Shown here one piece after another: positions 12,263 to 32,291 of a DNA stretch of 32,291 nt. A model generated the notes under the pieces. The model was given only the letters and a program-made list of their open reading frames with translations. It was not told the origin of the DNA and ran no database searches. This stretch comes from a virus. Both the position numbers and the translations under genes were made by a program. The stretch is taken from IMG/VR virus record IMGVR_UViG_3300045988_153208. The stretch is one strand, 5' to 3'. Within the stretch, counting starts at the first letter, position 1; each line of letters starts with the position of its first letter.

Positions 12263-12271
12263 TACAAAAAT

Positions 12272-12304: not shown

Positions 12305-12305
12305 A

Positions 12306-12346: not shown

Positions 12347-12366
12347 TAAAGGAAGGAAATGGGCTT

Positions 12367-12732
12367 ATGATGTATAAGATTGAGTATGGTCTATATAATA
12401 TAATTCATGAAGGCCTATGTAAAGGTCGTATATTTATTAATGCCTCTAATGTGAAACAGGCTCAATTCCGAGCGACACAGATAGCCCATAGTTTATTTTT
12501 TCGTAAAGCGAATGAAAACCGCACTCGGTTTCTTAGCCAAAAGAAAGTTTATGAAAAAGTAATAAATGATTTACATTTACCTAATACTTGGGATAAATGG
12601 GATACTACATGGGAGTATGTTAATAATTTATACTGGTCAATGATTGATGACTATGTTTGGTATAAAGTAGAAGAAGCCCCTGATATAGCGCCTTCGTTAA
12701 TACCGACAGTAGAAGAGTGGGAGGAGTTCTAA
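12367..12732 (+). CDS. hypothetical protein, W/Y-rich paralog 1 (121 aa)
   Basis: AAGGAAGGAAA RBS. C-terminal WxxxxDDYVWYKVEE motif shared with the next two genes. Confidence 0.55.
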   Translation: MMYKIEYGLYNIIHEGLCKGRIFINASNVKQAQFRATQIAHSLFFRKANENRTRFLSQKKVYEKVINDLHLPNTWDKWDTTWEYVNNLYWSMIDDYVWYKVEEAPDIAPSLIPTVEEWEEF

Positions 12733-13088
12733 TGTTTCAAAAATATTTACTCACCTACGGCAGTTATGATGTGGGCGATATGATAACTATGACTCGTTAT
12801 AGCGAGAGTCTTGAAGAGGCTCTTAAAGATGCTCAATCTTTTGCTCGGACTCATTTTGAGGATTTGGCTAGGAGAAAACAGGTTCGATGGAAACATTATA
12901 TCGGTGAGTATGTTGAAGAGTATCGAGATAAAGTAAAATATTTAACTGGCATACGTCCAGTAGGTGGAGATTATAAAGGTCAATCATTTTGGAACCTTGG
13001 ATACAATAAATATAAGACTATGCTTGATGATCATATCTGGTATCAAGCAGAGTTAATCGACATTAAAGACCCATTTGAGGAGTTGTAA
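12732..13088 (+). CDS. hypothetical protein, paralog 2 (118 aa)
   Basis: ATG at 12732 (TAATG) after GGGAGGAG. Track start is a GTG at 12717. DDHIWYQAE motif. Confidence 0.5.
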   Translation: MFQKYLLTYGSYDVGDMITMTRYSESLEEALKDAQSFARTHFEDLARRKQVRWKHYIGEYVEEYRDKVKYLTGIRPVGGDYKGQSFWNLGYNKYKTMLDDHIWYQAELIDIKDPFEEL

Positions 13089-16153: not shown

Positions 16154-17890
16154 ATGAATCTGTATGACGCCCTGACTACGGAAGATATTGACCTGATTCG
16201 TGCTTACATTGAGGCATATGGCGGCAAGAATGATGAATATGATGCGACTGGTTGTTATGTTCAGTCTATGCCGAACACGATGGCGCCGTGGGCAGAGGCT
16301 AAGGAGCGTCTCTATACGATGTTCGGTGAGCAGCTTATTCTGAGGAAGTCCTTTAACTTCTCTAAGGGCGTCGATGAGTTGGCCGATGAAATCAATGAGG
16401 CTCGTTATCGCAGAGATGGTAATGGTATCTCTGAGATGGACACTTTGATTCGTGAAAATTTCTGGCCTCGGAATATTTATTCCGCTTTGGGTCTGGATGA
16501 TGACCAGGCAGATAATATTTGTCGGCTGATTGATTCCTATATGCTGGCTAATAATTCTTGGAGCCGCACTGAGTTCACTGTGAATGGCGTTCGTGTGAAT
16601 ACTGGTGCTAAGGCTGTGAAGATTCTGGGTAAGATTCTCGCCACTTTTGAGAACCCTGAGTGGAACGAAATCTTTGAGCAGTTCCGCCTGGAACATTCTC
16701 GTATTCTCAATCAAAAGAAGCTGACTGGCGAACTGTGCCTGTCTATTCATCCTCTGGATTATATGACTATGAGTGATAACAACGAGGGCTGGGACAGTTG
16801 TATGAGCTGGCAGGCTTGCGGTGATTATCGTCAGGGCACCGTAGAGATGATGAATTCTCCTTGTGTCGTGGTGGCATATCTGCGGAATCCCGGCTATGAG
16901 ATGGACATTCCCGATGGTCATTGGAACAGCAAGAAGTGGCGTTGCCTGTTTGTTGTCGACCGCGATGTTATTGTTAATATTCGCGAGTATCCCTATTGTA
17001 ATGATGAACTGGTGGGCGAATGCCTGAATTGGTTGAAGAGCCTGGCCGAGAAGAACCTTCATTATCAGTATCGTGATACTACCTGTCGGTATCGCGCAGA
17101 TTGCGAGAATACTGTTCAGGTTGGCGAGAAGAAAATTCCTGTGAATTTTTCTACTGGTCATATGTATAGCGATTTCCGTTTTGAGCATCTGATGTATCTG
17201 AATACCACTCTGCCGGATAATATTAACATTTATTACTCTGGTGTGAGTGAGTGCCTGGGTTGCGGTAAGACTTCCAGCGGCTATGATGAAAGTCTCCTGA
17301 GTTCAAATGATTTGATTTGTCATAGCTGTAATGGCGATGGCGAGTGCGAAGAGTGCGGTCGTTATTGCGATGCTGAGGAATTGTATGAGGTTGAGGGCCG
17401 TTTGATTTGTCAGGATTGCTATGATAACGAGACTGCTGAGTGCCCCGTTTGTCAGCGTGAGGTTGACCTCCACAATGAAAAGTGTGAAGATTGGCGCGAC
17501 CAATTGCCTGACCCTGAGCGCCATTTCATCCGTAGCGATAATACATTTGAAATCGCATTCAATGGCTATATCACTCATCTTCACTTTGATACTCTGTGTG
17601 AGTATTGTGCTAAGAAGATTCGTTCTGGCGAAATCAAGGACTACGGCCCTGTTGAGCAATTTGTTGATAAGTGGAACATTTCCCATACCTATCTGGATTT
17701 GGAGAAGATGACTGAGGACGCTGTTCAGGACGTTATTCCTTGGAATGGTAAGGGCTGGATGGAGCACCGCAGAGACAATCCTAACCGCAGTTGGGTAAGT
17801 CTCAAAACAGGATATTGCGATTTTGATAAGGGTTATTTCATTGATGAAGACGGGAACGAAATCGAAAATCCTCGCAAAATCTTCTTTTAA
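16154..17890 (+). CDS. large hypothetical protein (578 aa), Cys-rich C-terminus; paralog of 21387..22850
   Basis: ORF track. Shares LCLSIHPLDYMTMS, WNSKKWRC, YPY and multiple CxxC blocks with the 487-aa protein. Confidence 0.7.
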   Translation: MNLYDALTTEDIDLIRAYIEAYGGKNDEYDATGCYVQSMPNTMAPWAEAKERLYTMFGEQLILRKSFNFSKGVDELADEINEARYRRDGNGISEMDTLIRENFWPRNIYSALGLDDDQADNICRLIDSYMLANNSWSRTEFTVNGVRVNTGAKAVKILGKILATFENPEWNEIFEQFRLEHSRILNQKKLTGELCLSIHPLDYMTMSDNNEGWDSCMSWQACGDYRQGTVEMMNSPCVVVAYLRNPGYEMDIPDGHWNSKKWRCLFVVDRDVIVNIREYPYCNDELVGECLNWLKSLAEKNLHYQYRDTTCRYRADCENTVQVGEKKIPVNFSTGHMYSDFRFEHLMYLNTTLPDNINIYYSGVSECLGCGKTSSGYDESLLSSNDLICHSCNGDGECEECGRYCDAEELYEVEGRLICQDCYDNETAECPVCQREVDLHNEKCEDWRDQLPDPERHFIRSDNTFEIAFNGYITHLHFDTLCEYCAKKIRSGEIKDYGPVEQFVDKWNISHTYLDLEKMTEDAVQDVIPWNGKGWMEHRRDNPNRSWVSLKTGYCDFDKGYFIDEDGNEIENPRKIFF

Positions 17891-17910
17891 CTGGTTCAAT
17901 ATAAAGTATT

Positions 17911-17951
17911 TTGATTTTTTTAAAAAAAAATTATATAATATATATGTAAGG
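17911..17951 (+). promoter_or_regulatory. sigma70-type promoter cassette copy 9
   Basis: TTGATT 17911-17916, 17-nt spacer, TATAAT 17934-17939, ATATATGTAAGG. Confidence 0.6.
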
Positions 17952-18001
17952 TAAAGGAAGACCTTACAACAAAAATAAATTTTTGAAAGAGGTATACAAA
18001 T

Positions 18002-18412
18002 ATGAAGACTACCGATCGCACCACTAAGCGTGATTTTTATGAGGCTATTATCAAGGCTATGGAGACTGGCGAGACTGATGTCGAGCCCACCAAGATTATC
18101 GAGTTCTGTGAGAATGAGATTGCCCTGCTGGATAAGAAGGCCGACAAGGCTAAGGAGCGCGCCGCTGCTAAGAAGGCCGAGGCTGACGAACTGATGGATA
18201 AGGTGTATGCCGTCCTGAGCGATACCGAGTTTATGACTCGTAATGCTGTGATGGATGCCCTGGGTGATATGCCCGAGGACGTGACCATCAGCAAGGTCGG
18301 CGCAAGATTGACCAAGCTTGTTAATAGTCAGGCTGTGGAAAAGTCTGAGCTGACTGTTGCGAACGCTGAGGGTAAGAAATCCAAGTGTATGGGTTATAGA
18401 AAATTGGGTTAA
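18002..18412 (+). CDS. hypothetical Lys/Ala-rich protein (136 aa)
   Basis: AGAGGT RBS. ORF track. Higher GC than its neighbours. Confidence 0.6.
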   Translation: MKTTDRTTKRDFYEAIIKAMETGETDVEPTKIIEFCENEIALLDKKADKAKERAAAKKAEADELMDKVYAVLSDTEFMTRNAVMDALGDMPEDVTISKVGARLTKLVNSQAVEKSELTVANAEGKKSKCMGYRKLG

Positions 18413-18446
18413 TCCCATAACTTTGAGTGTCAAAATTGATTAATTA

Positions 18447-18489
18447 TTCCTCCTCATATTTCATAGTAAATATGAGGAGGAATTTTTTT
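18447..18489 (+). terminator. 15-bp hairpin + T7 (terminator that also sequesters the RBS of the downstream HEG)
   Basis: TTCCTCCTCATATTT / AAATATGAGGAGGAA with loop CATAGT. The right arm contains GAGGAGGAA, the SD for the ATG at 18490. Confidence 0.6.
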
Positions 18490-19284
18490 ATGATTGGTAT
18501 TTATAAAATTACAAATAAAATTAATGGCAAGAGTTATATTGGATAGAGTATTCGTATTGAACAACGTTGGCGAGACCATCAAATGAGAAGTCAAACTTCT
18601 TTAATTCATCGAGCCTTAGAAAAATATGGTGTCGAAAATTTTACATTCGAAGTATTAGAACAGTGTAATCAAGCAGATTTAGACGAACGAGAAAAATATT
18701 GGATTACCTATTATAATACATTTGAAGATGGCTATAATTTAACTCGCGGTGGAGGAGAAGGGTTTAAATATGACGTTGAAGAAGTTTATCAAACATTTCT
18801 CCAATTGTAGAATTTAGCACAAACCGCTCGTAAAATAGGTTGTCATGAAACTACTGTGAGAAATATTCTTCGAACTTATGATATTAATTTATCTATAAAG
18901 CAAGAAGATAAACCAGTAGAATAGATTGACCCTAAAACATTGTAGGTAATTCGAGAATTTAAAACGGTCCAAGACGCCGCTGATTCAGTTAATTTAAATC
19001 GTGCCTCTATTTCTAAGGTTATTAATGGACATGGAATGACGGCAGGAGGATATATTTGGCGCGCTAAGGGAGATACAGAAAAAATTCTTAAAGATTCAAA
19101 TAAACGTTGGAAATGCCCAGTAGAACAAATGGATTTACAAGGAAATATATTAGCAGAATATGAATCAGCAGCAGAAGCGGCTAGACAAATAGGACATCCT
19201 GGTCGAGGACGCCAAATTATATCTGTTTGTAGAGGGAATAATATGACCTCTTATGGTTATAGATGGCGTTATAAAAAGATTTAA
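18490..19284 (+). CDS. GIY-YIG homing endonuclease with C-terminal NUMOD/IENR-like DNA-binding repeats (264 aa; 4 in-frame TAG read as sense)
   Basis: MIGIYKITNKINGKSYIG-TAG-SIRIEQRWRDH matches GIY..YIGQS..R..H with the TAG at the conserved Gln. NLTRGGGEG. Helix-turn-helix-like repeats downstream. No TAA or TGA for 264 codons. Confidence 0.8.
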
Positions 19285-19304
19285 TCGGGACACACCGATT
19301 CTTG

Positions 19305-19340
19305 AATGAGGTTAGGATTTAATTCCTAACCTCATTTTTC
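19305..19340 (+). terminator. rho-independent terminator
   Basis: AATGAGGTTAGGA / TCCTAACCTCATT around a TTTAATT loop, then TTTTT. Confidence 0.6.
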
Positions 19341-19423
19341 TATGGGTCTGCTCCGGGCGAGGTCGGAGACAAAGACCGAAAACCCAAATTAAAATATGGC
19401 TTACTAATTTTTTAACCAATTTA

Positions 19424-19452
19424 TTGACATATATTAAAAAATATGCTATAAT
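19424..19452 (+). promoter_or_regulatory. consensus sigma70 promoter TTGACA-N17-TATAAT (not of the cassette type)
   Basis: TTGACA 19424-19429, exactly 17-nt spacer, TATAAT 19447-19452. ATG at 19477. Confidence 0.6.
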
Positions 19453-19476
19453 AAAAACAAAAAAGGATTTATTATA

Positions 19477-20289
19477 ATGAGATATTGTTTGAAATATATA
19501 AAAAATCAATATATCCAAGAGGCTGATGAAATTCTATTCGCAGATAATCATGGTGATGATATGATTGACGCAATAGAGCAATATCCTCACGCTGATTTTA
19601 TTTATGAGGTCGTTGATGAGCCTGATTGGGATTATTTAAAAATGATTAATAGCAAACTAAATGAAACTGATCGGCGATTAATCATTTCTACTCTTTATTC
19701 TAAAATCGCCCAAGAGGCAAAAGAAAATGGATTGGCGTTTTATTTTTCATTTGCGATTAATAACTTCGCAGACTTACAAGCCGTGTGTGAATTAGGAGCT
19801 TGTTATGCGCTTATTACAGCTCCAATCTTTTTCGAGCAGGATAAATTGGAAAAATTTTCCATTCCACTTCGCTATCGTGCCAATGTTGCATATAGTGGTA
19901 TTTTGACTACAAAGCGCGTAAATGCGAATGCGGCATTTATTCGTCCTGAGGATGTAGACCTTTATGATTATGATACAACAACCATTGAGTTTGGCGCAAC
20001 CCATACTGAACAAGAAGAGGTTTTATACCGTTTATATAAATATAATAAGCGTTGGCCGGGCGATTTGAATATGGTAATTACAACTCTTAATGTCGTGCCC
20101 GCGCCGATGAATCGAATGATTGGGCCAGACTTCGGCAAGCATAGATTGAATTGCGGCCAACGATGCGTAGAAGGCGATACTCTTCAATGTCATTTATGCC
20201 ATAATCAGATGGCATTAGCAAATCCGTCAAAAATTAAGGATTATATAGACAATGTAATTTTACCAGTTAGACAAGAAAAGATAAATTGA
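19477..20289 (+). CDS. hypothetical protein (270 aa)
   Basis: ORF track. Low GC (about 35%). No recognisable motif. Confidence 0.6.
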   Translation: MRYCLKYIKNQYIQEADEILFADNHGDDMIDAIEQYPHADFIYEVVDEPDWDYLKMINSKLNETDRRLIISTLYSKIAQEAKENGLAFYFSFAINNFADLQAVCELGACYALITAPIFFEQDKLEKFSIPLRYRANVAYSGILTTKRVNANAAFIRPEDVDLYDYDTTTIEFGATHTEQEEVLYRLYKYNKRWPGDLNMVITTLNVVPAPMNRMIGPDFGKHRLNCGQRCVEGDTLQCHLCHNQMALANPSKIKDYIDNVILPVRQEKIN

Positions 20290-20326
20290 CAATTTTATTT
20301 AAATATTATATAATATTTATATAAAA
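20286..20326 (+). promoter_or_regulatory. sigma70-type promoter cassette copy 10 (degenerate: TTGACA, ATTTATATAAAATAAG tail)
   Basis: TTGACA 20286-20291, 17-nt spacer, TATAAT 20309-20314. Overlaps the stop of the upstream gene. Confidence 0.55.
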
Positions 20327-20346
20327 TAAGAAAGGAAGATTGATAG

Positions 20347-21387
20347 ATGCGAGTGATGAAAGACTCTGAGTATCTAGCATTTAAGCAGTTAGCTAAGCTT
20401 ACTCAAGATCAAATGATTAAGGCTATGCGTGCGGTGTTAGAGGCTCGTTATACCGATATTATCGCAACAAAGGAATATATTGTAGCCAAGGGAGATATTC
20501 CTATCGGATTGGTTGCCCATATGGATACAGTATTCCCGCTTCCTCCTACTGAAATTTATTATGATACTACACAGAATGTTGTGTGGAGTCCGCAGGGTCT
20601 TGGAGCTGATGACCGCGCAGGTGTATTCGCGATTCTTCAGATTTTGAAGACTACAAAATTGCGTCCGCATATTATTTTGACAACTGATGAAGAGAAGGGC
20701 GGATGGGGCGCATACGCCCTTGTTGAACAGCATCCAGATTTTCCGTTTGATGATTTGAAATATCTGATTCAGTTGGACCGCCAGGGCGCGAATGATTGTG
20801 TGTTTTATGATGGTATCAATGAAGATTTTATCCGTTATGTATCTTCTTTTGGTTTCGTAGAGCATATTGGTTCATTCAGCGATATTAGTATTCTGTGTCC
20901 ATTCTGGGATGTGTGCGGTGTCAATCTTTCTGTCGGTTATAAAAATGAGCATAGTCTCATTGAAACATTAAATATTAGCCATTTGTTCGATACCATCCAA
21001 AAGGTGAAGAGAATGTTAATGGTGAAGGAAATTCCTGACTTTGAGTGGAAGGAAAAATACTATCCTTATTTCACTAATGGGTATCCTCTGGATGATGACA
21101 TTGATGAGTATAGCGCGGCTTATGGTTATAATTGGGTAAATGATAAACGCTCTGTTGATGCTTATACAGTAATTTGTCATAATTGTAAGAAGCCATTTTA
21201 TAATTATGAAACATTCCCCACTAAGAAAATTGATGGTGGAACTATGTTCTTGTGCCCCGATTGTGTGGGCGACCATGCTAATTGGTGCGATTGTTGTGGC
21301 GAAGCATTTGAGCGTACACCGGAAAATGCCGGGGCTACTCTTTGCCCTGACTGTGCGAAAATTGAGAAGATTAAGGTTAAAGGTTAA
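20347..21387 (+). CDS. MH-clan (M20/M28/M42-like) metallopeptidase-like domain fused to C-terminal zinc-ribbon (346 aa)
   Basis: VAHMDTV (HxD), GLGADDRAG (GxxDD), TTDEEKGGWGA (EE) in canonical order. The last His motif is not evident. C-terminal CHNC...CPDC...CDCCG...CPDC. Confidence 0.6.
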   Translation: MRVMKDSEYLAFKQLAKLTQDQMIKAMRAVLEARYTDIIATKEYIVAKGDIPIGLVAHMDTVFPLPPTEIYYDTTQNVVWSPQGLGADDRAGVFAILQILKTTKLRPHIILTTDEEKGGWGAYALVEQHPDFPFDDLKYLIQLDRQGANDCVFYDGINEDFIRYVSSFGFVEHIGSFSDISILCPFWDVCGVNLSVGYKNEHSLIETLNISHLFDTIQKVKRMLMVKEIPDFEWKEKYYPYFTNGYPLDDDIDEYSAAYGYNWVNDKRSVDAYTVICHNCKKPFYNYETFPTKKIDGGTMFLCPDCVGDHANWCDCCGEAFERTPENAGATLCPDCAKIEKIKVKG

Positions 21388-22850
21388 TGAAGAGTTATAA
21401 TTTAGATGAACTAAAACAGCAAGTCAAACACGTATTAGAGTATAGTCAGGGTATTTATGATGTGAGTGAGGACGCTCTTGATAATATGATGAGTGAATGG
21501 GAGCGTAATAAAGCACGATTCATTAATGATTTTATGGGCGGCAAACTCATTGTGGAGTTGTCAGGCAAACGCTCCTTTCATTTGGGAGAAAAGGCAAAAC
21601 TCAAGAAATACAATGATTTTTTGGATTATGTTGTTCTGCGAATGAATAATTATGAGTTATGCCGATTTATTGAAGCGCAGGGCGAAGAAGGATTTTATGA
21701 GAACACCGTAAAAACTGGTTGGGACCATACTAAGAGTGATACATTTATTTCGCCGGGATCTAAACTAATACGAGCATTTAAATATTTCATTGAAGATAAG
21801 GATTTGCTGGAAACTGTTCAGAATGAGGCCAGTCGTATTATTCAAGGAGACTGTATCGAAGGCATTCTTTGTATATCAGTCCATCCTCTTGATTACCTCA
21901 GTTTAAGTGAAACTACATATAACTGGCGTTCTTGCCATGCTCTTGATGGCGAATATCGCGCTGGTGATTTGAGTTATTTGATGGATGGTAGCACATTTAT
22001 CTGTTATCTGAGAGGCGATGATAAACAAAACCTCCCTTCATTTCCCGATGATTTGCTCTGGAATAGTAAGAAGTGGCGTTGTTTGGGCTTCTTGGCTGAT
22101 GATGAAAATGGTATCATTATGGGCCGTCCTTATCCCTATGAGGCCGCAGATATTATTAATGAACTTCGTTGGGAAGTGTTTAATAGAGAATGGAATTTGG
22201 GCCTTGGTAGTTGGCGCGCAGACGCCATTCGTTCGGTTCAAGATCGCCTAACTAACTGGGATGAAGATTTGAATCGTACTTATATCCCTTGGAATGGCCG
22301 TCTTGTAGAACTTGATAAAACTGTTCATGATTGTCCAAGTCCTACTCATTATAATGATATTCTTTTATCCAGTTGTTATTTGCCTATTTATGCTCGTGGT
22401 AAAGGATATTTTGGCAAGAATGATTGGAAGAAGGTTCAGTATCATATTGGACACTCAGTAATGTGTATTCATTGTAATTCTGAGTATGTGTCTCCTGGTG
22501 ATGGCACGATGATGTGCCGTTCTTGTGAGATTAGATATGGCAATTCTGACAGTGATGATATTGTTTGTTGTGAGAATTGCGGTTGTCGTTTATGGTATGA
22601 AGACGCAATTGTTGTTGGAGACAATGGAAATTATCTTTGTGATGAATGTGCTAGTAGAATCACTAAAACTTGTAGAGATTGTGGTAATCCATATTACATT
22701 GATGATTTAACATATCATAAAGACGATGAAGATGAAAACGGCGGATATTATCTATGTGGATGGTGCGAGCAAGATAGGCAGGACACGGAAGAAATTGCAG
22801 AAGATGAATCTTCTACTACTACTATCAGTTTTGATGAGTTTGATCTGTAG
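21387..22850 (+). CDS. large hypothetical Cys-rich protein (487 aa; +32 aa if terminal TAG is read through to the TAA at 22949), paralog of 16154..17890
   Basis: TAATG coupling. ILCISVHPLDYLSLS, WNSKKWRC, YPY and CxxC blocks shared with the 578-aa protein. Ends in TAG. Confidence 0.7.
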   Translation: MKSYNLDELKQQVKHVLEYSQGIYDVSEDALDNMMSEWERNKARFINDFMGGKLIVELSGKRSFHLGEKAKLKKYNDFLDYVVLRMNNYELCRFIEAQGEEGFYENTVKTGWDHTKSDTFISPGSKLIRAFKYFIEDKDLLETVQNEASRIIQGDCIEGILCISVHPLDYLSLSETTYNWRSCHALDGEYRAGDLSYLMDGSTFICYLRGDDKQNLPSFPDDLLWNSKKWRCLGFLADDENGIIMGRPYPYEAADIINELRWEVFNREWNLGLGSWRADAIRSVQDRLTNWDEDLNRTYIPWNGRLVELDKTVHDCPSPTHYNDILLSSCYLPIYARGKGYFGKNDWKKVQYHIGHSVMCIHCNSEYVSPGDGTMMCRSCEIRYGNSDSDDIVCCENCGCRLWYEDAIVVGDNGNYLCDECASRITKTCRDCGNPYYIDDLTYHKDDEDENGGYYLCGWCEQDRQDTEEIAEDESSTTTISFDEFDL

Positions 22851-22968
22851 TCATTAAATACAAGACCTATATATTATATACACGATGAAAATGGCGAATG
22901 GATACCTATTACGCGAGTGCGTCAAATACCTCCGCCAGAAAGTGAATAATTATTTAAATATTTAAGGA

Positions 22969-23268
22969 GTGATTATTATAGCACGCGGAAGTATTGCTAA
23001 GGAAAATGTCGCTAAAATACTTGCCGAATCATTTGGTAAGGATTGGATTGGCGAGTCTGATAAGAAGTATTATGTTTGGGCTAATGATGGCGGTGAGCGC
23101 GTTCAAATCGCTATTAGTTTGACCTGTCCAAAGAATCCAGTAGGAGCCGCAATATCTCCTACAAGTAATGAAATCAATTTTGAGGCCGAGCCTGAGAGAC
23201 CTGTAATGGAGATTACTCCTGATGAACAGGAAATGATTGACAGACTTAAGGCTGAATTGAATCTTTAA
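22969..23268 (+). CDS. hypothetical protein (about 99 aa), start codon unresolved
   Basis: Protein-like open frame at about 40% GC. The only in-frame start is a GTG overlapping AAGGAG, and there is no ATG. Confidence 0.35.
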   Translation: MIIIARGSIAKENVAKILAESFGKDWIGESDKKYYVWANDGGERVQIAISLTCPKNPVGAAISPTSNEINFEAEPERPVMEITPDEQEMIDRLKAELNL

Positions 23269-23273
23269 TATAA

Positions 23274-23307
23274 TGAGATAAGTCATTTGACTTATCTCAT
23301 TTTTTTT
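23274..23307 (+). terminator. rho-independent terminator at the early/late boundary
   Basis: ATGAGATAAGT / ACTTATCTCAT with a 5-nt loop, then T8. Confidence 0.65.
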
Positions 23308-23315
23308 GTTATAAT
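23307..23315 (+). promoter_or_regulatory. possible extended -10 promoter (TGTTATAAT) for the AT-rich gene block
   Basis: TGnTATAAT immediately after the terminator T-tract. AAGGAG RBS and ATG at 23348. No -35. Confidence 0.3.
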
Positions 23316-23347
23316 TTAAATAGAATTAGATTATAAGGAGATTTAAA

Positions 23348-24049
23348 ATGTATAATCAAATTATTGAAGAATTAGAAGTTCTTAAATAGAATTTTGATAG
23401 TGAAGATATTGTATCATATCAATTACTTTTAATTAAAATTAAGAAAATTATTGATTTGATTAATGATAAACAACTTGAGGAAGCAGATAAAAGCAAATTA
23501 TCTAATTATATTCGAGATTATTTAGCAAGTTTGCATTTAAATAGAATTTTCACAATTTCTGATTTGAATGAATTATTTATTCCAGAAGTGAAAGATTTAG
23601 ATATTGGTAATAAAAATATTTATATTACAATTTTTAATTTATTCGTGGAAGAATTATCTGATGTAGATAATATTTTTTCTCAAAAACTTAAATACTGTAT
23701 TACAAATATGATTTCTAGAATTGCTGCTTCTGTAGATGAAACAATGGTTACAGAAGATAAAACTCAAGAAACTGTAATTAATGAACCTGTTCAAATTATT
23801 CCAACTATAAATACAGTAAATACTAATTCATTCGATTTGGATATTGATATTACTAATAAAAATTATTTGAAAGAATATATTATGCGTAAAAATTTAAAAC
23901 CTTACAGATGTGATATTTGTGGATTAAGTTCCTGGCAAAACAATCCTCTTATGCTATATTTATACAGTAAAAATCATATTTATTCAAATAAAAATTTAGA
24001 AAATTTGATGTTTTTATGCCCTAATTGCTATTCTCAGATTGGAGAGTAA
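23348..24049 (+). CDS. HNH-like endonuclease-domain protein (233 aa; 1 in-frame TAG)
   Basis: AAGGAG RBS. C-terminal CDICG...LYLYSKNHIYSNKNLENLMFLCPNCY resembles HNH (CxxC...H..N...CxxC) with Tyr where the last His normally sits. Confidence 0.55.
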
Positions 24050-24052
24050 TTT

Positions 24053-25240
24053 ATGTATTATAATTCTTATAATTAGAATTATTTTAATGAATTAAATAAA
24101 ATATTCAATAAATTTGATACTAATAATATTAATGATTATTATAATTTATTTAAATTAATATATGATATATATTTTAATGAAAATGTATTTATAATTGTTA
24201 ATGATGATATAAAATATCAATTAGAATCAAATTTAAAATTACTTATTAAAAAAAATAATTGGTTTATAGATTTTGAACAAACTGAAAAAAATATATTAAT
24301 TTCATTATTTATTATAATTACTTAGAAAATTAATTTTGGAAATTATTATCAAATTAATAATACATTAAAACAATAGATTGAATCATTATTATTAGATAAA
24401 AATTTAATTAATGAAAAAATGATTCATGATAGTAAAAATGTTTTTCATTTAGTTGATAGTTTTCCTGAAAATGAAAGTATGATTAAATTTTTTAAGCAAT
24501 ATAATATTGATATTATGAATTAGGAATTTTTAACTATTGGTAATACGAAAATTCCTAATTTTTATTTAAAACAAAAAAATAAAATGATAGATCATTATTA
24601 TGAATTTTGCCATTTATTATTTAAAATTTATAGTCCAATCTTATATTATGGTGTTTCATTTGAAGAAGGATATGAATATAAAATAACTAATAAAGATATT
24701 GTATTTGATTGTGGCGGAAATATGGGACTATTCGCGCTATACTGTGCTTCAAAAGGCGCGCAAGTATATTGTTTTGAGCCTATGTCTTATATTAGAGATT
24801 TTTTATATGAGAGTCAAAAATTATATCCTGATTTAATCCATATTATTCCTTGTGGAGTGTTTAATAGAAATTAGGAACAATATTTTTCTCAAACCTATAA
24901 TCCAGGAGCTGGATCGAATTCAATATTTCATGAATTAGAATATACATCTGATAGATTATATAAAGAAAAATGTAAGTTAATTACATTAGATTCATTTAGT
25001 TAGAATAATCATATTATTCCTACATTTATTAAAGCAGATATTGAAGGGTCTGAAGCACAAATGCTTGAAGGCGCTTCACAAATTTTACAAACATATAAAC
25101 CAACTATGAATATTTGTTTAAATCATCGGACGGAAGACCAATATAATATTCCTACCCTTATTTATAATATCAATTCTAATTATTCATTTTATTATTTTAT
25201 TGAAGGAGAAATACATTCTAAATTTGTATTGTGTAAATAA
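24053..25240 (+). CDS. FkbM-family SAM-dependent methyltransferase (395 aa; 6 in-frame TAG)
   Basis: VFDCGGNMGLFALYCASKGAQVYCFEP (motif I) and IKADIEGSEAQMLEGA (FkbM signature). No TAA or TGA for 396 codons at about 22% GC. Confidence 0.7.
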
Positions 25241-25242
25241 AT

Positions 25243-26196
25243 ATGCCAAATATTATTTTAACAGAATATTGTAATCTTCAATGCCCTTACTGTTTTGCTA
25301 GTAAAATGATTGAAGAAAAAACAGATGATACTAAAAATATTTCTCTTGAATAGTTAGATATGATTTTAAAATGGTTATTACCTTCAGCAACAAATTTAGA
25401 TCGGATTGGATTAATTGGAGGAGAACCTACTTTACATCCTTAGTTTAGAGAGATATTAGGTAGAATAAATTCATTTAATGAATTTACAAATACTTCTTCA
25501 ATAGTATTTACGAATGGAATTAATTTAAGTGAATTTTTATCTGCTATTGGACCAAATATGTCAATTTTAATTAATGTAAATAAATTGACTGGTAAATCAT
25601 TAAATAAACTTAATAGTGTATTAGATGAAATTAATTATTTAAGTTGGTTTAAAATTGATAAAGTTATTTTAGGATGTAATTTATATCAAAATGAAAATGA
25701 TTATTCTTATTTTTGGAATGTAGTTGATAAATATCCAGATATTTTAAGAATAAGAATGTCTATTACTGCACCCAATAGCAAAGAATTAAGAGTAAATAAA
25801 GAATTGTATTATACTATTATGAAACCTATATTATTACAATTTTTAGAAGAAACTAAAAAACGTGATATAAAAATTTCATATGATTGTAATTAGATTCCGT
25901 TATGTTTATTAAACAATGAAGAATAGAATTTAATAAATCAATTAGGGGAATTAAATAGTTTTTGTGAGCCCGTTATAGATATTACTCCAGATTTTAAAGC
26001 TACTTGCTGTTTTGGTGTTTATGATAATCCCATTCAATGTAATGATTTTAATAATATCGAAGAATTAACTAGATATTTTAAAAATCAAATAGTAATAAAA
26101 ACTATAAATAATAACACTTCCATGTGCAAAGATTGTAAAAAATTACAACTTGCTCAATGTCAAGGAGGATGTTTATCATTTTCTAATGTTGGGTAA
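25243..26196 (+). CDS. radical SAM enzyme with SPASM/twitch-like C-terminal Cys cluster (317 aa; 4 in-frame TAG)
   Basis: CNLQCPYC (CxxxCxxC) at residues 10-17. IGLIGGEPTLHP. C-terminal CCFGV...C...CKDCKKLQLAQCQGGC. Translationally coupled to the methyltransferase gene. Confidence 0.8.
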
Positions 26197-26254
26197 GTAT
26201 AAGTAATAAAGTTTTATAATTTTTTAATTCTAAAAAAGAAGGAGGAATTTTTTT

Positions 26255-26692
26255 ATGGCAAATATTACTTATGAATTAATTTTTAAATTTGCTTCTGGTA
26301 AAGAGGTAAATTTTATCGATGAAGAACATACATTTTCTATTGTAGAAGATTATCGTTCTCCAGTTCTTTTAACCCCTCAAATGTTTGGTATTGATGATTT
26401 ACGTGAGTATTATGCATTATTATTAATTGATGGTAAGCCTATGGAGGATTATGCATCAAATTATTGTAATTTTAAAAATTTTGGTAATTCTATTGTTGAT
26501 TTGCTTAATAATAAAGATACTATTTCAGAAATTATTTTAAAAGATATTGATACTAAAGGAGAATATTTTCATATAAATTCTGATCAATTAGTAGGTATTG
26601 AAGCTGGCGGAGGAACTGATAGAGGTTTTGATAATATAATGGTATACCGCATACAAATTTATTATAAAAAAGTTGGAAAAATAGGTGAGTAA
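26255..26692 (+). CDS. hypothetical protein (145 aa), no in-frame TAG
   Basis: Strong AAGGAGG RBS. ORF track. Confidence 0.6.
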   Translation: MANITYELIFKFASGKEVNFIDEEHTFSIVEDYRSPVLLTPQMFGIDDLREYYALLLIDGKPMEDYASNYCNFKNFGNSIVDLLNNKDTISEIILKDIDTKGEYFHINSDQLVGIEAGGGTDRGFDNIMVYRIQIYYKKVGKIGE

Positions 26693-26694
26693 TA

Positions 26695-27315
26695 ATGGGA
26701 GCTAATGCTACATCTGCGGGTAATTTAGTTAAACTATCTGATTTAGATGCGCTATATTTACGTTTATATAATTTAAAAGTAGCTCATATTAATGATGCAG
26801 ATTAGATTAATAAACCTGCTCTAACAGTTCCACCCAAAAGTAGTGGATTAATCCAAGGTAATAAAGTAGAAGTTTCAACCGCTAAAATTGCTACATTAAA
26901 ATCTGAACTAGCAAATTTAGCTCAATCAAAATGGTATTAGTCTAATACGGAGAATACTATAGTAACAATGACAGATTTTAGTACAAATATTAAAGTACCT
27001 AATGTAGGAGATTTATTAAAAAGCGTAGATTTTAATTTAATTGAAACTGCTATTACCTCTGCTGAAACTATTATACCTACTTATTCAAATAAATATAATG
27101 CTCGTTATAGTTTTCGTTATAGTGGTCATTATAGTTCTGATTATGGTACCTGTTATGATAGTCGTTATGGTACTTGTTATAGTAATTGTTATGGAGGCCG
27201 TTATAGTACTCGATATGGTACTTGTTATAGTTGTTATGGTTGTTATGGTTGTTATCGCAGATATAGTTCAAGGTATGGTAGATATGCTGCAAAAAATGTT
27301 CAAATTAGATGTTAA
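26695..27315 (+). CDS. Cys/Tyr/Gly/Ser/Arg-rich tandem-repeat peptide, candidate radical-SAM substrate (206 aa with 2 TAG from the 26695 ATG; 115 aa if it starts at the 26968 ATG)
   Basis: GGTGAG RBS and TAATAATG coupling at 26695. No TAA or TGA for 91 codons upstream of the track ORF 26968..27315. C-terminal 75 residues are [Y-x-x-X] repeats (YSFR, YSGH, YGTC x3, YSNC, YGGR, YSTR, YSC, YGC, YGC ...). Confidence 0.55.
27100..27290 (+). repeat. degenerate 9-12-nt tandem DNA repeats (CGTTATAGT / TGTTATGGT) encoding the YxxX peptide repeats
   Basis: Visible periodicity. All six reading frames are open across it, which gives spurious ORFs at 27041..27340 (+) and 27077..27292 (-). Confidence 0.7.
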
Positions 27316-27326
27316 AGGTGAATTAA

Positions 27327-28763
27327 ATGTTAATAAATAAATTAGATTTAATGGGATCCAGCAGCTGTGATTTAAAATGTTCTTATTGTTATATTACAAA
27401 AAATTGTTCATTTTATAATTATGATTCCGCCGTTCAAGAAGCTTGGGAAACTGGATCTTATTTAACTACTATTAAACAAGTTTTTTCGAAATTGGATGCA
27501 GACCCTACTCAAATAAAAGATTTAGAATTTTGGGGAGGAGAACCTACATTACATATTAAAGAAATGGCTTCTCAAGGAAAAGCATTAGGATAGTTATTTC
27601 CAGAAGTTGATTTTGTATTAATCCCAACTAATTGGTATTAGATTAATATGCAAGCCTTAGTAGATTTTATTTACAATTTTAATGATGGTATCTCTCCTCG
27701 TGGAAGTAAATCAAAAAATGTTAATTTTCATTTACAATTATCCATTGATGGGCCTCCTGGAGATTTTAATACTTATGGTCATAAAGTACCTTGGGATACT
27801 TATAAAAAACAATTTGATGATTTTTGTTTTTATTTAAAAGAAAAAGAAAATTCTGGAAGAGAATTAAAAAATATTAATATTATTTTCGCTATTAGTGGAA
27901 CCTCTTAGCAAAAATATATTTTAAAAAATTTAAATACTTTAGATAAAATAAAAGAATTTCAAGAATATATTAAAAAAGTTTGTAAATATGTAAATGATGA
28001 ACTAAAACAATTTAAAACTATAGATATATTTTTAGGAACTCCAATTTGGACTCCTACGGTAGCTATTCCAGATTCGACAACCACTGAAGAAGCATTAGAA
28101 TTAAATAAAATTGCACTAATGTTAGAATATAGCGATTATGTTAATGGAATAAAACCTTATAGTATTGATGCTAATGAGATTCAAGGGTTTCATGCAACTT
28201 ATGGAGAATTAAATGTATTGGATAGAAATCACGAATGTCCAGAGTCTAATGAACATGCAATTACATTAATGCCTGATGGAACTATTGCTGAATGTCCCTG
28301 TACCTTTTTATAGAATTTAGATTCTTATAAACAAGAATTATTAAATAATAAATAGTATTGGGAATATAAATCTTGTTTAATTAGAGATGGTAGTTTTTAT
28401 AATCCATTATTAGGTGATGAAAAACTTGATAATTACCATAGTTGGTATGTTTATGGTGGTGGATTTATTGGGACTAATTCTACTTATGCTAATTTAAATT
28501 TAAATATGGCTTATGAAATGGCTTTATCAAGATAGATTGATTATAACTATGCATTAAATCCAGAGTTATTAATGAGACATTATATGGCTATTTTTACAAC
28601 TGCTGAATGCTATCGTGAAAATGTTAATGTGACTCATAATCATTTTTTAACAGATCATAACATGTTTAGGCGTTGGTATAATGGTTATGCCGAATTAGGA
28701 TATAAAGATCATCGAGAGAAGATTAAAAAAATTATGGAAAATGTATTAAAAGGAGAAAATTAA
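27327..28763 (+). CDS. radical SAM enzyme with SPASM/twitch-like domain (478 aa; 6 in-frame TAG)
   Basis: AAGGTGA RBS. SSCDLKCSYC (CxxxCxxC). EFWGGEPTLH. C-terminal HECPESNEHAITLMPDGTIAECPC resembles the SPASM pdGdv..C element. Confidence 0.8.
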
Positions 28764-29947
28764 TGTTAGTACAAGAACAAGATAATCTCTTACTGCGAGA
28801 TATAATAGAACGTAATTATTATACATTTTTTCGTAAGGATGAGTATGTAAATAAAAATTTAAATATTTCTTTTTTCTATGATAATGATTATACTGATTAT
28901 AAAATTATTCCTAATTATGAGTCATTAGAAGATAAAAATGCTAACTTTGAATAGATTTATAATAATTTTAAATTATTTTTAAATTATTATAAAAGCCAAG
29001 GGTTTAATGCTAATATTAACATTCATGATGATAAATTTTTTGATAATTTTGAATTAAATTTATCACTATTTAATTTAATTTATGAACAAGAAATTAAATT
29101 TAAATCATTAAATTTTTATATTAGTTTATATAAATTTGAAGATTTAAATTCTCTATTTAATAAAATTAATATATTAAATAATAAATTTCATATAAATTTT
29201 GTTTTTAGCTTATTAATTTCTCAAATTGATTTATTTAAAAATCAAGATATTAATAATTTAAATTATAAATTAAATATTTTAATTCCTCCACAAATGCCGT
29301 CAGAAGAATTAATATTTAATTAGAAAATAATTGATAGTAATAATTTTAATATTGATTAGTATATTGAAGTTGATTCTGATTTATGGACTATCGAAGCGAT
29401 AGAGGATTATTTAAAATATTTAAATTATTTAATGGATAATTTAAATGATTTAAATGAAATTTTCTTTACAAATTTACCTATTGCTTTACAAGATTAGCAT
29501 GTATTAGATAATACAAATTGTAAAAAAAATTGTGATTTCCAAAATTCATTAAATGTTTTGATAGTAGATTTAAGCATTAATTTATGCCACAAATTTCAAT
29601 TTAAAGATTTAATTATTGGTAATTATATATATAATGAAGAAAATAATAAATTAGAAATTGTAAGTAAAAATCTTCCAACGATAATATTAGGGGCGCATTT
29701 AAAACGTTCTAGCACTCCTCATTGTGAAACTTGTTCTTATGTTAATATATGTCAAGGTTTTTGCTTTATGCGCTCTTATTTAAAATGCTATAATCCTATT
29801 ATACCTATTCAGGAAAGTTGTTTATTAAAAAAAATAAAATATAATTTTATTTTTAATAAATTAAAAAATCAAAATTTTAATATTGATAATAATTTAATTA
29901 TTTCAGATTTATATAAGCAATATTTACATCAAATCTTAAAACATTAG
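28763..29947 (+). CDS. SPASM-motif protein lacking the radical-SAM CxxxCxxC core (394 aa; 4 in-frame TAG)
   Basis: TAATG coupling. AAGGAG RBS. C-terminal HCETCSYVNICQGFC is an exact CX2CX5CX3C, with more Cys upstream. No N-terminal CxxxCxxC. Confidence 0.65.
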
Positions 29948-29961
29948 GGAGGGGAAAAATA

Positions 29962-30231
29962 ATGTATTTACCAATACATAATAATTATTATTATTTATTA
30001 ATTAATACTCCTCTTACTTATCCAATTTGTTTAGATGAAGAAGAAGCTCTAGCTTATTTAAAATATATTAATCGAGATGACTATCAATATAATAATATTG
30101 CTAATTATGATGTTCTTGATTATGAGAAAATAATATATATTGAAGTTTCTTTCCCAAATAATGAAGAAATTCAAAAATTACTTACTAAAATTAAAGATAA
30201 TATTGCAACCGGTTATGCATTAAGGAATTAG
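29962..30231 (+). CDS. hypothetical protein (89 aa), ends in TAG
   Basis: AGGGAGGGG RBS. If the TAG is sense the frame runs to a TGA at 30336, overlapping the next gene. Confidence 0.5.
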   Translation: MYLPIHNNYYYLLINTPLTYPICLDEEEALAYLKYINRDDYQYNNIANYDVLDYEKIIYIEVSFPNNEEIQKLLTKIKDNIATGYALRN

Positions 30232-30280
30232 TATAAAAATCGTCTTTTTGATTTTAGCAATTATAAAGAGGAGCGGCTTT

Positions 30281-31684
30281 ATGAACCTTCAAGCGCCAAA
30301 TATTGTGGATTGCCAAGAGATAACTTGTGATATGATAGAAGATTATCTTGCTAAACGATATCAATAGCAAGTATTAAAAACAAAATTTCCTTTTGATGTA
30401 GAAATACAATTAATTTTAGCTAGAAATTGTAATTTAAACTGTACTAATTGTTAGGCTGGTTGTAATATTAATGATAAAAATGAATTAATGACATTAGATG
30501 AAATTAAATACGCTATCCCTAAATTAAAAAAATTTTTTCAAGATAAAATTTTATAGATAGTTTTATTTGGTGGAGAACCATTATTAAATCCAGAGTATGA
30601 AGAAATTTGCTATTATGTACGAAGTGAATTACCAGAAGCCTCAATAGATATTTATACCAATGGTATTCTTAAATAGAATTGGACTGAAAAAGACTATGAA
30701 TTTGCAGTAAAAAATGAAGTACATTTTACACAAAGTTTATATCCATTAGGAGAATCGTATTTTAATAATACTTAGAAACAAGAAGAATTAATGACTAAAT
30801 TAGGCATTAAACATGAAATATGTGGAAATCGTCCTTTTTTTATTAAAGGAGGTTATAATAAAACAGGAAGTTCAAATCCGAATCGTTTTTTTTAGTGTTG
30901 TCATTCAATGTTTCCTCCTCATTTTTATTTATTTAAAAAATAGCTATGGCGATGCGCACCAACATTAAGTTGGGATAAAATTAATATTCCTTGTTTCCCA
31001 GAAGATTATTTAAATATTGATAATTTGACAGAAGAACGTTTTATCGAATATTGTAGCAAACCATTAAAAATATGTAAATATTGTGGAAACTCAGATGAAT
31101 TAGGATTTGGAAGTGATGAAATAATAACTTGGCATCATTAGAAAGATTTGCCCAGTAATTATGATTAGACTTTATATGATTTATATATAAATAATTATAA
31201 ATTATATTATAAGTATGTCCATGATTGCAAAACTATTCTTCCTTGTTTTGATAATTAGTATTTTATAGATAATATTAAAGCAGAGGATTTGCCTTCTCAT
31301 CCAAGTATAATGTTTTTAAAAAAATTTAAAACAGGATTAGGAGATGTATGTATCCCATTTGATAAAGAATCTTGTTAGGATATAAAAAATTTATTAAAAT
31401 TTAAAAAATTAATTTTAAATTAGAATAATTATTTAAATATAAATTTTTATTTTATTTCATTAGATGGAAATAAGCCAGCGAAATCTATTATTTATCGAAT
31501 GTTTCCTCCCGCTTCTTGCGATTTAGAAGGGAATATTTATTTATTAGAATCAGACAATCCCAATAATTTTTATCAAATATTTTTACAAAATAGTTATTTA
31601 AAAAAGAAAATCTGTATTTTAAACTATAAAGATTTATTAGATAAGAATTATTTATCAAATAAATTTAATGAAATGGATGGTTAA
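30281..31684 (+). CDS. radical SAM enzyme (467 aa; 12 in-frame TAG) with Cys-rich C-terminal half
   Basis: AAGAGGAG RBS. NCNLNCTNC (CxxxCxxC). VLFGGEPLLNP. Later CCHSMFPPHFY..., CSKPLKICKYCG, MFPPASCDLEGNIY. No TAA or TGA for 468 codons. Confidence 0.75.
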
Positions 31685-31687
31685 TAA

Positions 31688-32291
31688 ATGAGACAATTTG
31701 AATTTCCTTATAATTTTGATAAAAAATTGTTATATATTTTACAAACATTTACATCTGGTAATGATATTAATTGTATTTATTTACCTCCATATCTTAAAGA
31801 TTATTAGACAATTTTACGAACTGCTGAATAGGCAGAACAATTAGATAAAATGTCTCGACAAGAATACGAAGATCATCTAAATTTTATTAATTCATTATTC
31901 CCAAATAAAATTTAGATTTTATTATAGAAAACTAATATTTTTTTAAACGCTGAACTCGTAAAATATTATATTAATTTAGGTGTTAAAAATTTTTGTGTAG
32001 CATCTATTGAACAAGCTAAAATTATTAAATAGATTGATTCAACAATTAATATTGTTGGATCAATTGCTATGCAAATTACATAGGAAAAAATAATAAATAA
32101 TTTACAAGAATTTTCTCTTTATTTTGATAGTTTTGTTTTACCATTTTCTGCATCTCGTCAATTATCAGAATTAAAAAAATTACCAAAAAATTTTAATTAT
32201 ATTTTATTAATCAATTCTTTGTGTAGTATTAAATGTAATGGAAAAAATCATTGGAATTTTGATTATAAAGAAGATAAAGAGATATTTTGCC
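31688..32291 (+). CDS. hypothetical protein, 5' partial view (201 codons or more, runs off the window; 6 in-frame TAG)
   Basis: ATG 4 nt after the upstream stop. The frame stays open to the window edge apart from TAG. C-terminal-ward Cys pairs. No confident family call. Confidence 0.5.

Follow-up and report, generated by a model that had tools for sequence, protein, structure and literature searches.

A putative radical-SAM maturation island for a protein with an aromatic-periodic tail in large stop-codon-recoded gut phages

The 3′ part of a 32,291-nt stretch of phage DNA (IMG/VR record IMGVR_UViG_3300045988_153208; this whole stretch is hereafter called the window, with coordinates on the given strand) carries an enzyme island at the heart of which lie three adjacent genes, encoding a protein with a tail of regularly spaced tyrosines (g4), a divergent radical S-adenosylmethionine (rSAM) enzyme (g5 or rSAM2) and a degenerate rSAM/SPASM partner (g6). 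We regard the island, with moderate confidence and on comparative sequence evidence, as a phage pathway that resembles how peptides that are ribosomally synthesized and then modified post-translationally (RiPPs) are matured, and that would act on the aromatic-periodic tail of g4. A phage rSAM pathway for peptide or protein maturation with a repeat element as its putative substrate had been proposed in an original prediction on this DNA, and that proposal is strongly supported by comparative genomics, namely by synteny of the g4-rSAM2-g6 triad under two genetic codes. The island is about 12 kb long and of low GC, begins at 23348 and continues beyond the window end, with its 5′ three-quarters in the window (Table 1); the cluster originally drawn at 24053-31684 was too short, starting too late and stopping before the sequence does. 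New within RiPP-like rSAM maturation are the substrate family, the enzyme families, the viral carrier and the coupling to stop-codon recoding. Neither a phage rSAM/YcaO maturation island nor this substrate family was found described in full-text literature searches, and radical SAM genes go unmentioned for phAss-1-type recoded phages.

The island is legible only in a recoded frame. Under translation table 11 the region from 23.3 to 32.3 kb appears as short open reading frame (ORF) fragments; with TAG read as sense (code 15), as the original prediction advised, it becomes a gap-free string of plus-strand genes with 0-12 in-frame TAGs each from 23315 on. Genes before 23 kb have almost no in-frame TAG, a homing-endonuclease gene being the exception, and in-frame TAGs start exactly where the enzyme island starts (boundary ~23300). 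TAG is likely read as Gln in the island, judging from the residues that orthologues carry at TAG sites and from codon usage: Gln is the commonest residue (6/25) at the window TAG sites in orthologues of a phage that does not recode TAG, and the island uses CAA 66, CAG 2 and TAG 29 times. GC also steps near 23 kb, from ~0.38-0.44 to 0.18-0.27, and in all six lineages checked the island (GC 0.18-0.29) lies within flanks of 0.35-0.45, the low-GC extents in related loci (L numbers) being ~6000-18000 in L001, ~5000-18000 in L005 and ~3000-17000 in L011. The joint step in GC and codon use suggests that the cassette moves horizontally or that it is under an expression regime of its own. No tRNA genes or Rfam families were found in the whole window. 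The closest relative, L001, is a 128-kb IMG/VR contig 96% identical to window positions 19262-32291; directly after its glycosyltransferase family 8 (GT8) genes, positions 17900-21100 hold a PD-(D/E)XK endonuclease with a helix-turn-helix domain, an HNH-like ORF and six tRNA genes (Phe, Asn, Leu-TAG, Ala, Thr and Leu-CAA). A suppressor tRNA with a CUA anticodon was not found among these six, and must therefore be encoded elsewhere.

The original prediction took a small Cys-rich ORF, encoding a Cys/Tyr-rich repeat peptide, for the substrate. The repeat is real, but the ORFs at 26695 and 26968 form a single gene holding two in-frame TAGs, and the peptide is the tail of a 206-aa protein, g4, with a conserved 130-aa N-domain and Cys residues that are not conserved. 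Every Tyr-Tyr spacing in the tail (18/18) equals 3 or 4, an outcome reached by 0 of 100,000 shuffles; the units read [S/G/D]-x-[R/C/H/D]-Y and C-Y-G, and the repeat DNA (27094-27255) has periods of 12 nt and 9 nt. Nearly all of the 64 g4 homologues found in databases are full length (194-255 aa), combining some 130 well-conserved N-terminal residues with a C-terminal tail that varies in length (alignments A1 and A9). The N-domain is as conserved as the island enzymes, and its profile retrieved only 59 clusters from 1.84 billion cluster representatives. These alignments show invariant or almost invariant Tyr columns in the family tail, with drifting residues in between; the periodic aromatic residue is kept, and Cys is not, across about 60 homologue clusters. 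Tail types comprise Tyr at period 4, Tyr at period 3 (YSN, YSQ) and Phe-based repeats (GNFTSNFTS...), and in the relative P0054 30 Tyr are set at 29/29 spacings of 4; the aromatic-X-X core pattern known from triceptides, here as Tyr or Phe at period 3 or 4, runs throughout the g4 family bar loci L029-L031. Cys makes up 8 of the 78 tail residues in the window and varies in other members, P0064/L002 and L011 lacking it in the tail and L012 in the repeat.

Structure models were made on close homologues (P0001, 95% identity; P0137, 67% identity), not on window translations. In the AlphaFold2 model of g4 the N-domain consists of three helices, with a predicted local distance difference test score (pLDDT) of 70-83, and the tail is disordered (pLDDT <50; overall 60). 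A comparison with predicted viral structures gave no significant match (best E 0.03, template modelling score 0.33), and this result, at such low model confidence, neither supports nor opposes an identity of g4 as a known structural protein. NCBIfam gave no match for g4, NHLP and Nif11 included. A Hint/intein-like domain beginning with Cys follows the tail in four g4-family cases. Autoprocessing domains of this type, starting with Cys and ending in ...HN, were seen in L012 (9019-9990) and in P0242, P0245, P0247 and P0253, and window g4 and many other members end in ...IRC (the window sequence) or ...RC, where the Hint-domain Cys would sit; this coincidence hints at C-terminal processing or ligation chemistry for the g4 family.

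Gene neighbourhoods of ever more distant homologues of g4 and rSAM2 were scored with hidden Markov models (HMMs) built from the alignments. The order g4, rSAM2, g6 is kept in the window, L001, L002, L005-L013 and L026-L028, and the adjacency of the three holds in every related locus where the g4 N-domain HMM detects the repeat protein: g4, where detected, is always directly upstream of rSAM2, and g6 always adjoins or overlaps rSAM2. A conserved N-domain with a length-variable tail, encoded directly upstream of rSAM2 and g6, matches the precursor layout of a RiPP cluster. Adjacency persists at 23-34% enzyme identity and under TAG or TGA recoding. L002-L004 and L028 recode TGA, apparently to Trp, contain no in-frame TAG and carry the same cassette, and the island must therefore have crossed, or predate, a genetic-code boundary. 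The 179-kb contig L010 has two separate g4/rSAM2/g6 triads (1119-4353 and 9388-12756), whose substrates differ in their tails, and a family 2 glycosyltransferase (GT2) gene after the second.

Around the triad, rSAM1 (g2), the FkbM methyltransferase (g1), g7 and the g9 N-domain are companions in most lineages, and paralogues of rSAM3 (g8), YcaO and glycosyltransferases vary from lineage to lineage. YcaO occurs in L005, L006, L011, L012 and L028 and is absent from the window; the relatives' proteins pass the YcaO domain model (106 bits against 75.65 for that of L011) and are closest to the E. coli type, which assists an rSAM enzyme acting on ribosomal protein S12. In L005 and L006 a YcaO gene of 597-599 aa fills the slot that in the window, between the 487/523-aa gene and g0, is taken by a 99-aa ORF (22969-23268, + strand), leaving the window lineage without YcaO. 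Cassette-bearing contigs measure 120-250 kb, one being from a pig-gut metagenome, and contain phage-type genes (a T4 gp10-like domain, sigma factors, NrdD/G, DNA polymerase III alpha, tRNA arrays and homing endonucleases). The original prediction put the island where structural genes of a phage late region would be expected; the window has no recognisable structural gene, and the island adjoins different genes in different relatives (tail-fibre-like in L002, gp10-like in L011, of nucleotide metabolism in L012). Among GenBank phages, megablast of window positions 20000-32291 and tblastn with g5 and g4 gave no match.

Table 1 Features of the island and their positions in the window
Feature	Description	Coordinates	Strand	Remarks
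g0	233 aa, degenerate HNH-like zinc-finger C-terminus	23348..24049	+	weak HNH and Zn-binding matches
g1	FkbM-family SAM-dependent methyltransferase, 395 aa, 6 in-frame TAGs	24053..25240	+	TIGR01444, PF05050
g2 (rSAM1)	radical-SAM/SPASM enzyme, 317 aa	25243..26196	+	PF04055 43.0 bits vs 29.5
g3	145 aa, no in-frame TAG	26255..26692	+	orthologues in L001, L006-L009
g4	putative substrate, 206 aa, 2 in-frame TAGs	26695..27315	+	N-domain and aromatic-periodic tail
g4 tail	aa 129-206	27079..27315	+	19 Tyr in 78 residues
g5 (rSAM2)	divergent radical-SAM enzyme, 478 aa	27327..28763	+	invariant Cys in alignment A3
g6	degenerate rSAM/SPASM partner of rSAM2, 399 aa	28763..29962	+	alignment A4
g7	conserved small protein, 122 aa, 1 in-frame TAG	29962..30330	+	overlaps g8 by 50 nt
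g8 (rSAM3)	radical-SAM enzyme, 467 aa, 12 in-frame TAGs	30281..31684	+	PF04055 45.8 bits vs 29.5
g9	U32-peptidase-like TIM barrel, 5′ 201 codons in window	31688..32291	+	cut by window end

The three rSAM genes named in the original prediction by their CxxxCxxC and GGEP motifs carry both where described: CNLQCPYC at aa 10-17 (nt 25270-25293) and GGEP at aa 59-62 (nt 25417-25428) in g2, CDLKCSYC at aa 14-21 and GGEP at aa 70-73 in g5, and CNLNCTNC at aa 50-57 (as CNLNCTNCxxxC) and GGEP at aa 97-100 in g8. The island rSAMs begin directly with the Cys triad, and CxxxCxxC is invariant in the three family alignments (A2, A3 and A10). Assignment to the radical-SAM family PF04055, the check then suggested, succeeded for g2 and g8 (Table 1) but not for g5, which scores 17.5 bits against 29.5; several members of the g5 family carry precomputed PF04055 matches, and g5 also has a weak N_Twi_rSAM match. 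SPASM/twitch-like C-terminal tails had been attributed to all three. The full SPASM-type set of conserved Cys is confined to g2, with CX2CX7CX3C at nt 26125-26172 and further conserved C241, C256 and C266, its family showing 13 invariant Cys, i.e. 10 beyond the SAM triad (alignment A2); g5 and g8 have only four to five conserved C-terminal Cys in a twitch-like, not SPASM, arrangement. These are part of the conserved C14, C18, C21, C167, C304, C323, C325 and C428 in g5, and in g8 comprise C207, C225, C265 and C268 beyond CxxxCxxCxxxC (alignment A10).

The g2 family profile aligns end to end (residues 9-311) with the anaerobic sulfatase-maturating enzyme anSME (4k37, E 3.4e-6), a founding SPASM protein, which modifies a protein substrate; TIGR04085 was not among the 25 matches listed, of 44 in all, for g2. 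The rSAM2 family consists of 67 unnamed metagenomic clusters with only generic radical-SAM domains in Pfam, and no PDB relative is detectable by sequence profile. A pattern-based scan of bacterial and archaeal genomes (GTDB, one genome per species, 185,579 species) yielded generic N-terminal rSAM matches only and not one full-length rSAM2. Profile matches of g8 in the PDB cover its N-terminal half only, to 7wzv (3.8e-12), GDGT-MAS and SkfB, with BtrN among the weak ones; g8 belongs to an accessory, lineage-variable paralogue family of 0-3 copies, absent in L002, L011 and L012 and duplicated in L005, L006 and L026.

The g6 protein had been described as SPASM-only. Its motif CETCSYVNICQGFC (nt 29723-29764) is indeed an exact CX2CX5CX3C and no CxxxCxxC is present, but the protein is better explained as a decayed rSAM/SPASM enzyme, because distant orthologues keep the triad: CxxxCxxC is retained in L010, L011 and L012, reduced to CxxC in L002 and lost in the window lineage. 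C257, C275 and C353 are also conserved, and the seven SPASM Cys are invariant in the family (alignment A4). Window g6 itself scores 23.4 bits with TIGR04085 (cut-off 27), eight of nine family members match the SPASM domain and QhpD models (best SPASM E 5e-6), and two of nine match the PapB model with an E value of 9.6e-9, far below its cut-off; the PDB profile search gave no match for g6. QhpD is a protein thioether cross-linker and PapB a ranthipeptide maturase.

None of g2, g5 and g8 reaches the curated cut-off of a named rSAM family in NCBIfam. The identities that the original prediction had listed as speaking against it (QueE, NrdG, viperin, HemN) were not borne out, no rSAM attaining the respective cut-offs or that of MoaA. 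Viperin was rejected at 49.8 bits against 180, over N-terminal residues 3-110 or so only, and MoaA (48.4 against 284), QueE (30 against 260) and NrdG (31 against 131) were rejected on matches to the N-terminal ~100 residues only; the PADLOC assignment as a defence-system pVip likewise reflects a generic N-terminal match only.

We base the RiPP-type reading on the strict, deep and even duplicated linkage of a protein bearing an aromatic-periodic tail with an rSAM pair, on the SPASM/protein-maturase affinities of rSAM1 and g6, and on the recurrence of YcaO in relatives. From these we infer that g4 is the substrate. Its three-helix N-domain would most likely be a long leader or docking module, and its disordered tail, with Tyr or Phe every 3-4 residues among Ser, Gly, Thr, Asn, Arg and Cys, the modified core. 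The invariant enzymatic heart would be rSAM2 with the adjacent g6, which in the window lineage, lacking the SAM-cleaving cluster, probably acts as an Fe-S or substrate-binding subunit. The pair would abstract hydrogen in the tail and so install repeated side-chain cross-links at or next to the aromatics. Since the aromatic positions are conserved and Cys is often missing, the shared reaction appears likelier to be radical cross-linking at or beside that residue than the formation of a thioether; cross-links could be of cyclophane or ether type, as in triceptides, with thioethers possible where Cys is present. The anSME-like rSAM1, rSAM3, the FkbM protein g1, the U32-like/GT8 protein g9 and, in relatives, YcaO would supply tailoring or lineage-specific additions; the U32-like Fe-S barrel of g9 could be a protease, or else an O2-independent hydroxylase whose activity is coupled to glycosylation. 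Dense in-frame TAGs would keep the island untranslated until TAG is read through, i.e. until late infection; the TAG load is the ground for proposing late, recoded-phase translation, in agreement with the literature on recoded phages, where reviews place suppressed stops mostly in late genes (PMC10607447).

Should this reading be correct, large gut phages would carry their own multi-enzyme pathway of natural-product type, conserved across two genetic codes. RiPP-like chemistry would then reach viruses, together with new rSAM families and a substrate of new architecture in which the tyrosines are perfectly periodic, and the island would exemplify an auxiliary pathway that only stop-codon recoding unlocks. 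As for the product, it might serve in the virion for adhesion or protection, or be released at lysis as a toxin or signal, and it could matter for how phages interact with their hosts or with mucus in the gut. More tentatively, and with rather low confidence, we suggest that it may represent an unrecognised class of cross-linked ribosomal product found only in large recoded gut phages, made by a phage-specific rSAM pair and, in this lineage, a fused U32-like/GT8 protein: a poly-macrocyclic, possibly catechol- or sugar-bearing polymer, used in the virion or released at lysis and gated by recoding. The U32-like/GT8 fusion could be an anaerobic counterpart of hydroxylase-glycosyltransferase fusions, hydroxylating aromatic rings for subsequent glycosylation or methylation.

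Triceptides and other cyclophane RiPPs (XyeB, YhhB, WprB) are the closest chemical precedent, with an rSAM/SPASM enzyme beside a precursor whose core repeats aromatic-X-X; the g4 family similarly tiles Tyr/Phe at period 3 (YSN, YSQ) or 4, and only the aromatics are conserved in the tail. However, the island enzymes score 13-31.5 bits with YhhB (cut-off 445) and 12.4 bits with XyeB (450), and the g4 family is phage-borne and has a folded 130-aa N-domain and up to 30 consecutive units. With no enzyme in the characterised cyclophane-forming families, the comparison is one of analogy, not membership. Thioether chemistry fits less well. The original prediction named sactipeptide, ranthipeptide and SCIFF loci among those marked by rSAM genes beside Cys-rich small ORFs; several tails of the g4 family have no Cys, and conserved core Cys donors were not found, which argues against these chemistries as the shared reaction. 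No thioether-RiPP maturase cut-off is reached, the best PapB scores being 23.6-36 bits for g2, g5 and g8 against 340.

QhpD (with QhpC) and anSME are protein-modifying rSAM/SPASM systems, and g4 is likewise a sizeable protein; QhpD is matched by eight of the nine g6-family members and anSME aligns with rSAM1 over its full length. Their scores are nevertheless far below equivalog cut-offs (e.g. 20.7 bits against 453), the feature conserved in g4 is none of their target motifs (the Cys/Ser-x-Pro/Ala-x-Arg sulfatase motif; Cys-Asp/Glu thioethers), and window g6 has no SAM cluster. Co-inheritance of an adjacent rSAM-type pair beside a precursor recalls the two-rSAM systems of thuricin CD (TrnC/TrnD; PMC12093266) and RumMC1/RumMC2 (PMC8188230), but one island partner (g6 in the window lineage) is a pseudoenzyme without CxxxCxxC, and the Cys donors of sactionine bonds are not conserved in the g4 family. 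Proteusins (NHLP/Nif11 leaders) also combine a long conserved N-region with several rSAMs and a methyltransferase, and differ in that g4 has no NHLP/Nif11 match, that its tail is strictly aromatic-periodic and that the enzymes are unrelated at the family level. As in stop-recoded gut phages (TAG→Gln, TGA→Trp), in-frame TAGs are confined to one part of the genome, and large contigs, gut samples and tRNA arrays recur; unlike in those phages, the recoded block is an auxiliary enzyme island and not recognisable structural or lysis genes, and the same island exists under both recodings.

Several observations weigh against maturation of the g4 tail. No island rSAM meets a curated peptide-maturase model, and outside rSAM1 and g6 similarity is confined to the generic N-terminal core. 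Profile searches of the island proteins found no PqqD-like RiPP recognition element (RRE), C39 peptidase or ABC exporter (a structure-based RRE search of g3 and g7 was not made), no dedicated leader protease or exporter was identified, and g3 and g7 have no detectable homology to known families. A leader is rarely as large as the folded 130-aa N-domain of g4, which may instead be what functions, the tail then being a modified appendage of a virion or intracellular protein. In the most distant loci, L029-L031, the tails are Asn/Gly/Ser-periodic without regular aromatics, and aromatic-centred chemistry may therefore not hold for the whole family. Lastly, GT8/GT2 genes and the FkbM methyltransferase also fit glycan chemistry.

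One competing explanation is a classical secreted RiPP, in which the g4 leader is cut off and one or more small cross-linked Tyr peptides are released at lysis as toxin, bacteriocin or signal, with the U32-like protein, the upstream M28-like peptidase or the papain-like peptidase of L006 as candidates for the cleavage. In favour, g4 joins a conserved N-domain to a hypervariable repeat core, as precursors canonically do, peptidase-like genes lie nearby (M28-like at 20347-21387, also upstream in L005, L008 and L009; Peptidase_C1 in L006; g9), and precursors with repeat cores cut into many units are known, such as WprA with its WprP2 protease (PMC12957482). We nonetheless consider this version unlikely: spacer or cleavage motifs are missing between the repeat units, no transporter or C39-type peptidase was found, the peptidases stand outside the invariant triad, and the long N-domain has a predicted fold and equals the enzymes in conservation.

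A glycoprotein pathway would instead make the Ser/Thr/Asn/Tyr-rich tail chiefly a glycosylation scaffold, a mucin- or fibril-like decoration of the virion or cell surface, to which GT8/GT2 enzymes attach sugars made or tailored by FkbM and the rSAMs, with no peptide cross-linking. In L001 g9 has three GT8-like genes after it, one of them fused to the U32-like domain, another lies upstream in L002, GT2 genes occur in L010 and L031, and N-x-S/T-like triplets (NYS, NFT, NGS) abound in many tails. Glycogenin, a GT8 member, glucosylates a Tyr, sugars are often O-methylated by enzymes of the FkbM family, and twitch rSAMs such as BtrN, one of the weak matches of g8, act on sugars. The invariant partners of g4, however, are two rSAM-type proteins and no glycosyltransferase; the best matches of the g6 family are the peptide/protein cross-linkers QhpD and PapB, rSAM1 matches anSME, YcaO enzymes, frequent in relatives, act on peptide backbones, and the window tail has few N-x-S/T sites of its own, which together make this pathway improbable. 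That the enzymes serve a nucleic-acid, cofactor or host-takeover pathway, with g4 an unrelated low-complexity operon neighbour (e.g. nucleic-acid-binding or condensate-forming), is very improbable: the top NCBIfam, PADLOC and PHROG matches of the rSAM N-termini do include viperin, MoaA, QueE and NrdG, the L012 island abuts NrdD/NrdG and a DNA polymerase gene, and the Arg/Tyr/Gly/Ser-rich tails resemble nucleic-acid-binding low-complexity domains, but the enzyme matches span the first ~100 residues far below cut-offs, and the strict g4-rSAM2-g6 adjacency, which outlasts deep divergence and recurs as a duplicated block in L010, would be difficult to account for if the genes were functionally unconnected.

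Among the remaining island genes, g1 is the FkbM methyltransferase that had been predicted, with 67.6 bits for TIGR01444 (cut-off 37.7; 1.6e-18) and 33.8 for PF05050 (22.7). Its N-terminal extension of ~170 aa is missing from distant orthologues; orthologues were recorded in all related loci, and g1 accompanies the triad in most lineages. The g0 protein, possibly a regulator, is 50% identical over 56 aa to an HNH homing-endonuclease-like ORF of L001 and has orthologues in the same position in L001, L002, L005-L009 and L011. A small protein of a size similar to g3 precedes the substrate gene in all relatives (small ORFs at the g3-like position in L002, L010-L013 and L028), and g3 has no Pfam, NCBIfam or PHROG match. 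Orthologues of g7 occur in L001, L002, L005-L009, L011, L012, L026 and L027, with no Pfam or PDB match for g7.

In L001, g9 is 513 aa long and fused to a GT8-like glycosyltransferase, and two more GT8-like genes follow. Against the PF01501 (GT8) cut-off of 24.3 bits, the 241-aa gene of L001 scores 28.1 and the C-terminal half of g9 22.7, just below; the 379-aa GT8-like gene is linked to the other two GT8-like parts by BLAST only. The N-terminal part of g9 (g9N) has a U32-type TIM-barrel fold and four conserved Cys (C103, C179, C183 and C201). No Pfam match, U32 included, was obtained for any of nine family members (9/9), nor a PDB profile match, and the 98 clusters of the g9N family bear no functional names or Pfam assignment. 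Most U32 families have four Cys that bind a 4Fe-4S cluster (PMC6747719), and the four Cys of g9N recall U32 Fe-S proteins such as the O2-independent hydroxylases UbiU/UbiV (PMC6747719, PMC10990095) and the U32 peptidase Mk0906 (5d88). The spacing differs, being CXnCX3CX17C in g9N against CX6CX15CX3/4C in the family, and the GT8 fusion is specific to the window lineage.

Upstream of the island, a GIY-YIG/NUMOD homing-endonuclease gene (18427-19284, + strand) with four in-frame TAGs sits in an otherwise TAG-free part of 40% GC and looks like a recent mobile insertion, because it is missing in L001, which aligns on both sides. Directly before the island, a plus-strand block of three genes (19477-22850), in the same order in L005, L008 and L009, encodes a 270-aa protein, a 346-aa M28/M20-like metallopeptidase with a C-terminal zinc ribbon (20347-21387) and a 487/523-aa Cys-rich protein; the block may be functionally linked to the island, e.g. 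via the peptidase. The 270-aa protein (19477-20289) was considered as a U32-like paralogue and rejected (hhalign probability 4.5% over 16 columns). The ORF of the Cys-rich protein (21387-22850) ends at a TAG, and reading through to 22949 gives 523 aa, matching orthologues of 512-533 aa. An apparent paralogue lies at 16154-17890 (+ strand); the two large proteins have 'SIHPLDY' and 'NSKKWRCL' in common and multiple C-terminal CxxC zinc-ribbon-like repeats, one with a weak Prok-RING_4 match. Further plus-strand genes encode a calcineurin-like phosphoesterase (3204-3947), an HNH_3 endonuclease (5858-6544) and a 477-aa protein (14587-16020) with a strikingly Met-rich C-terminus (…MLMLLDGKSDMKDMLIPMMLMNQ…). 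Most other ORFs of this upstream standard-code part are small and acidic and look like early genes.

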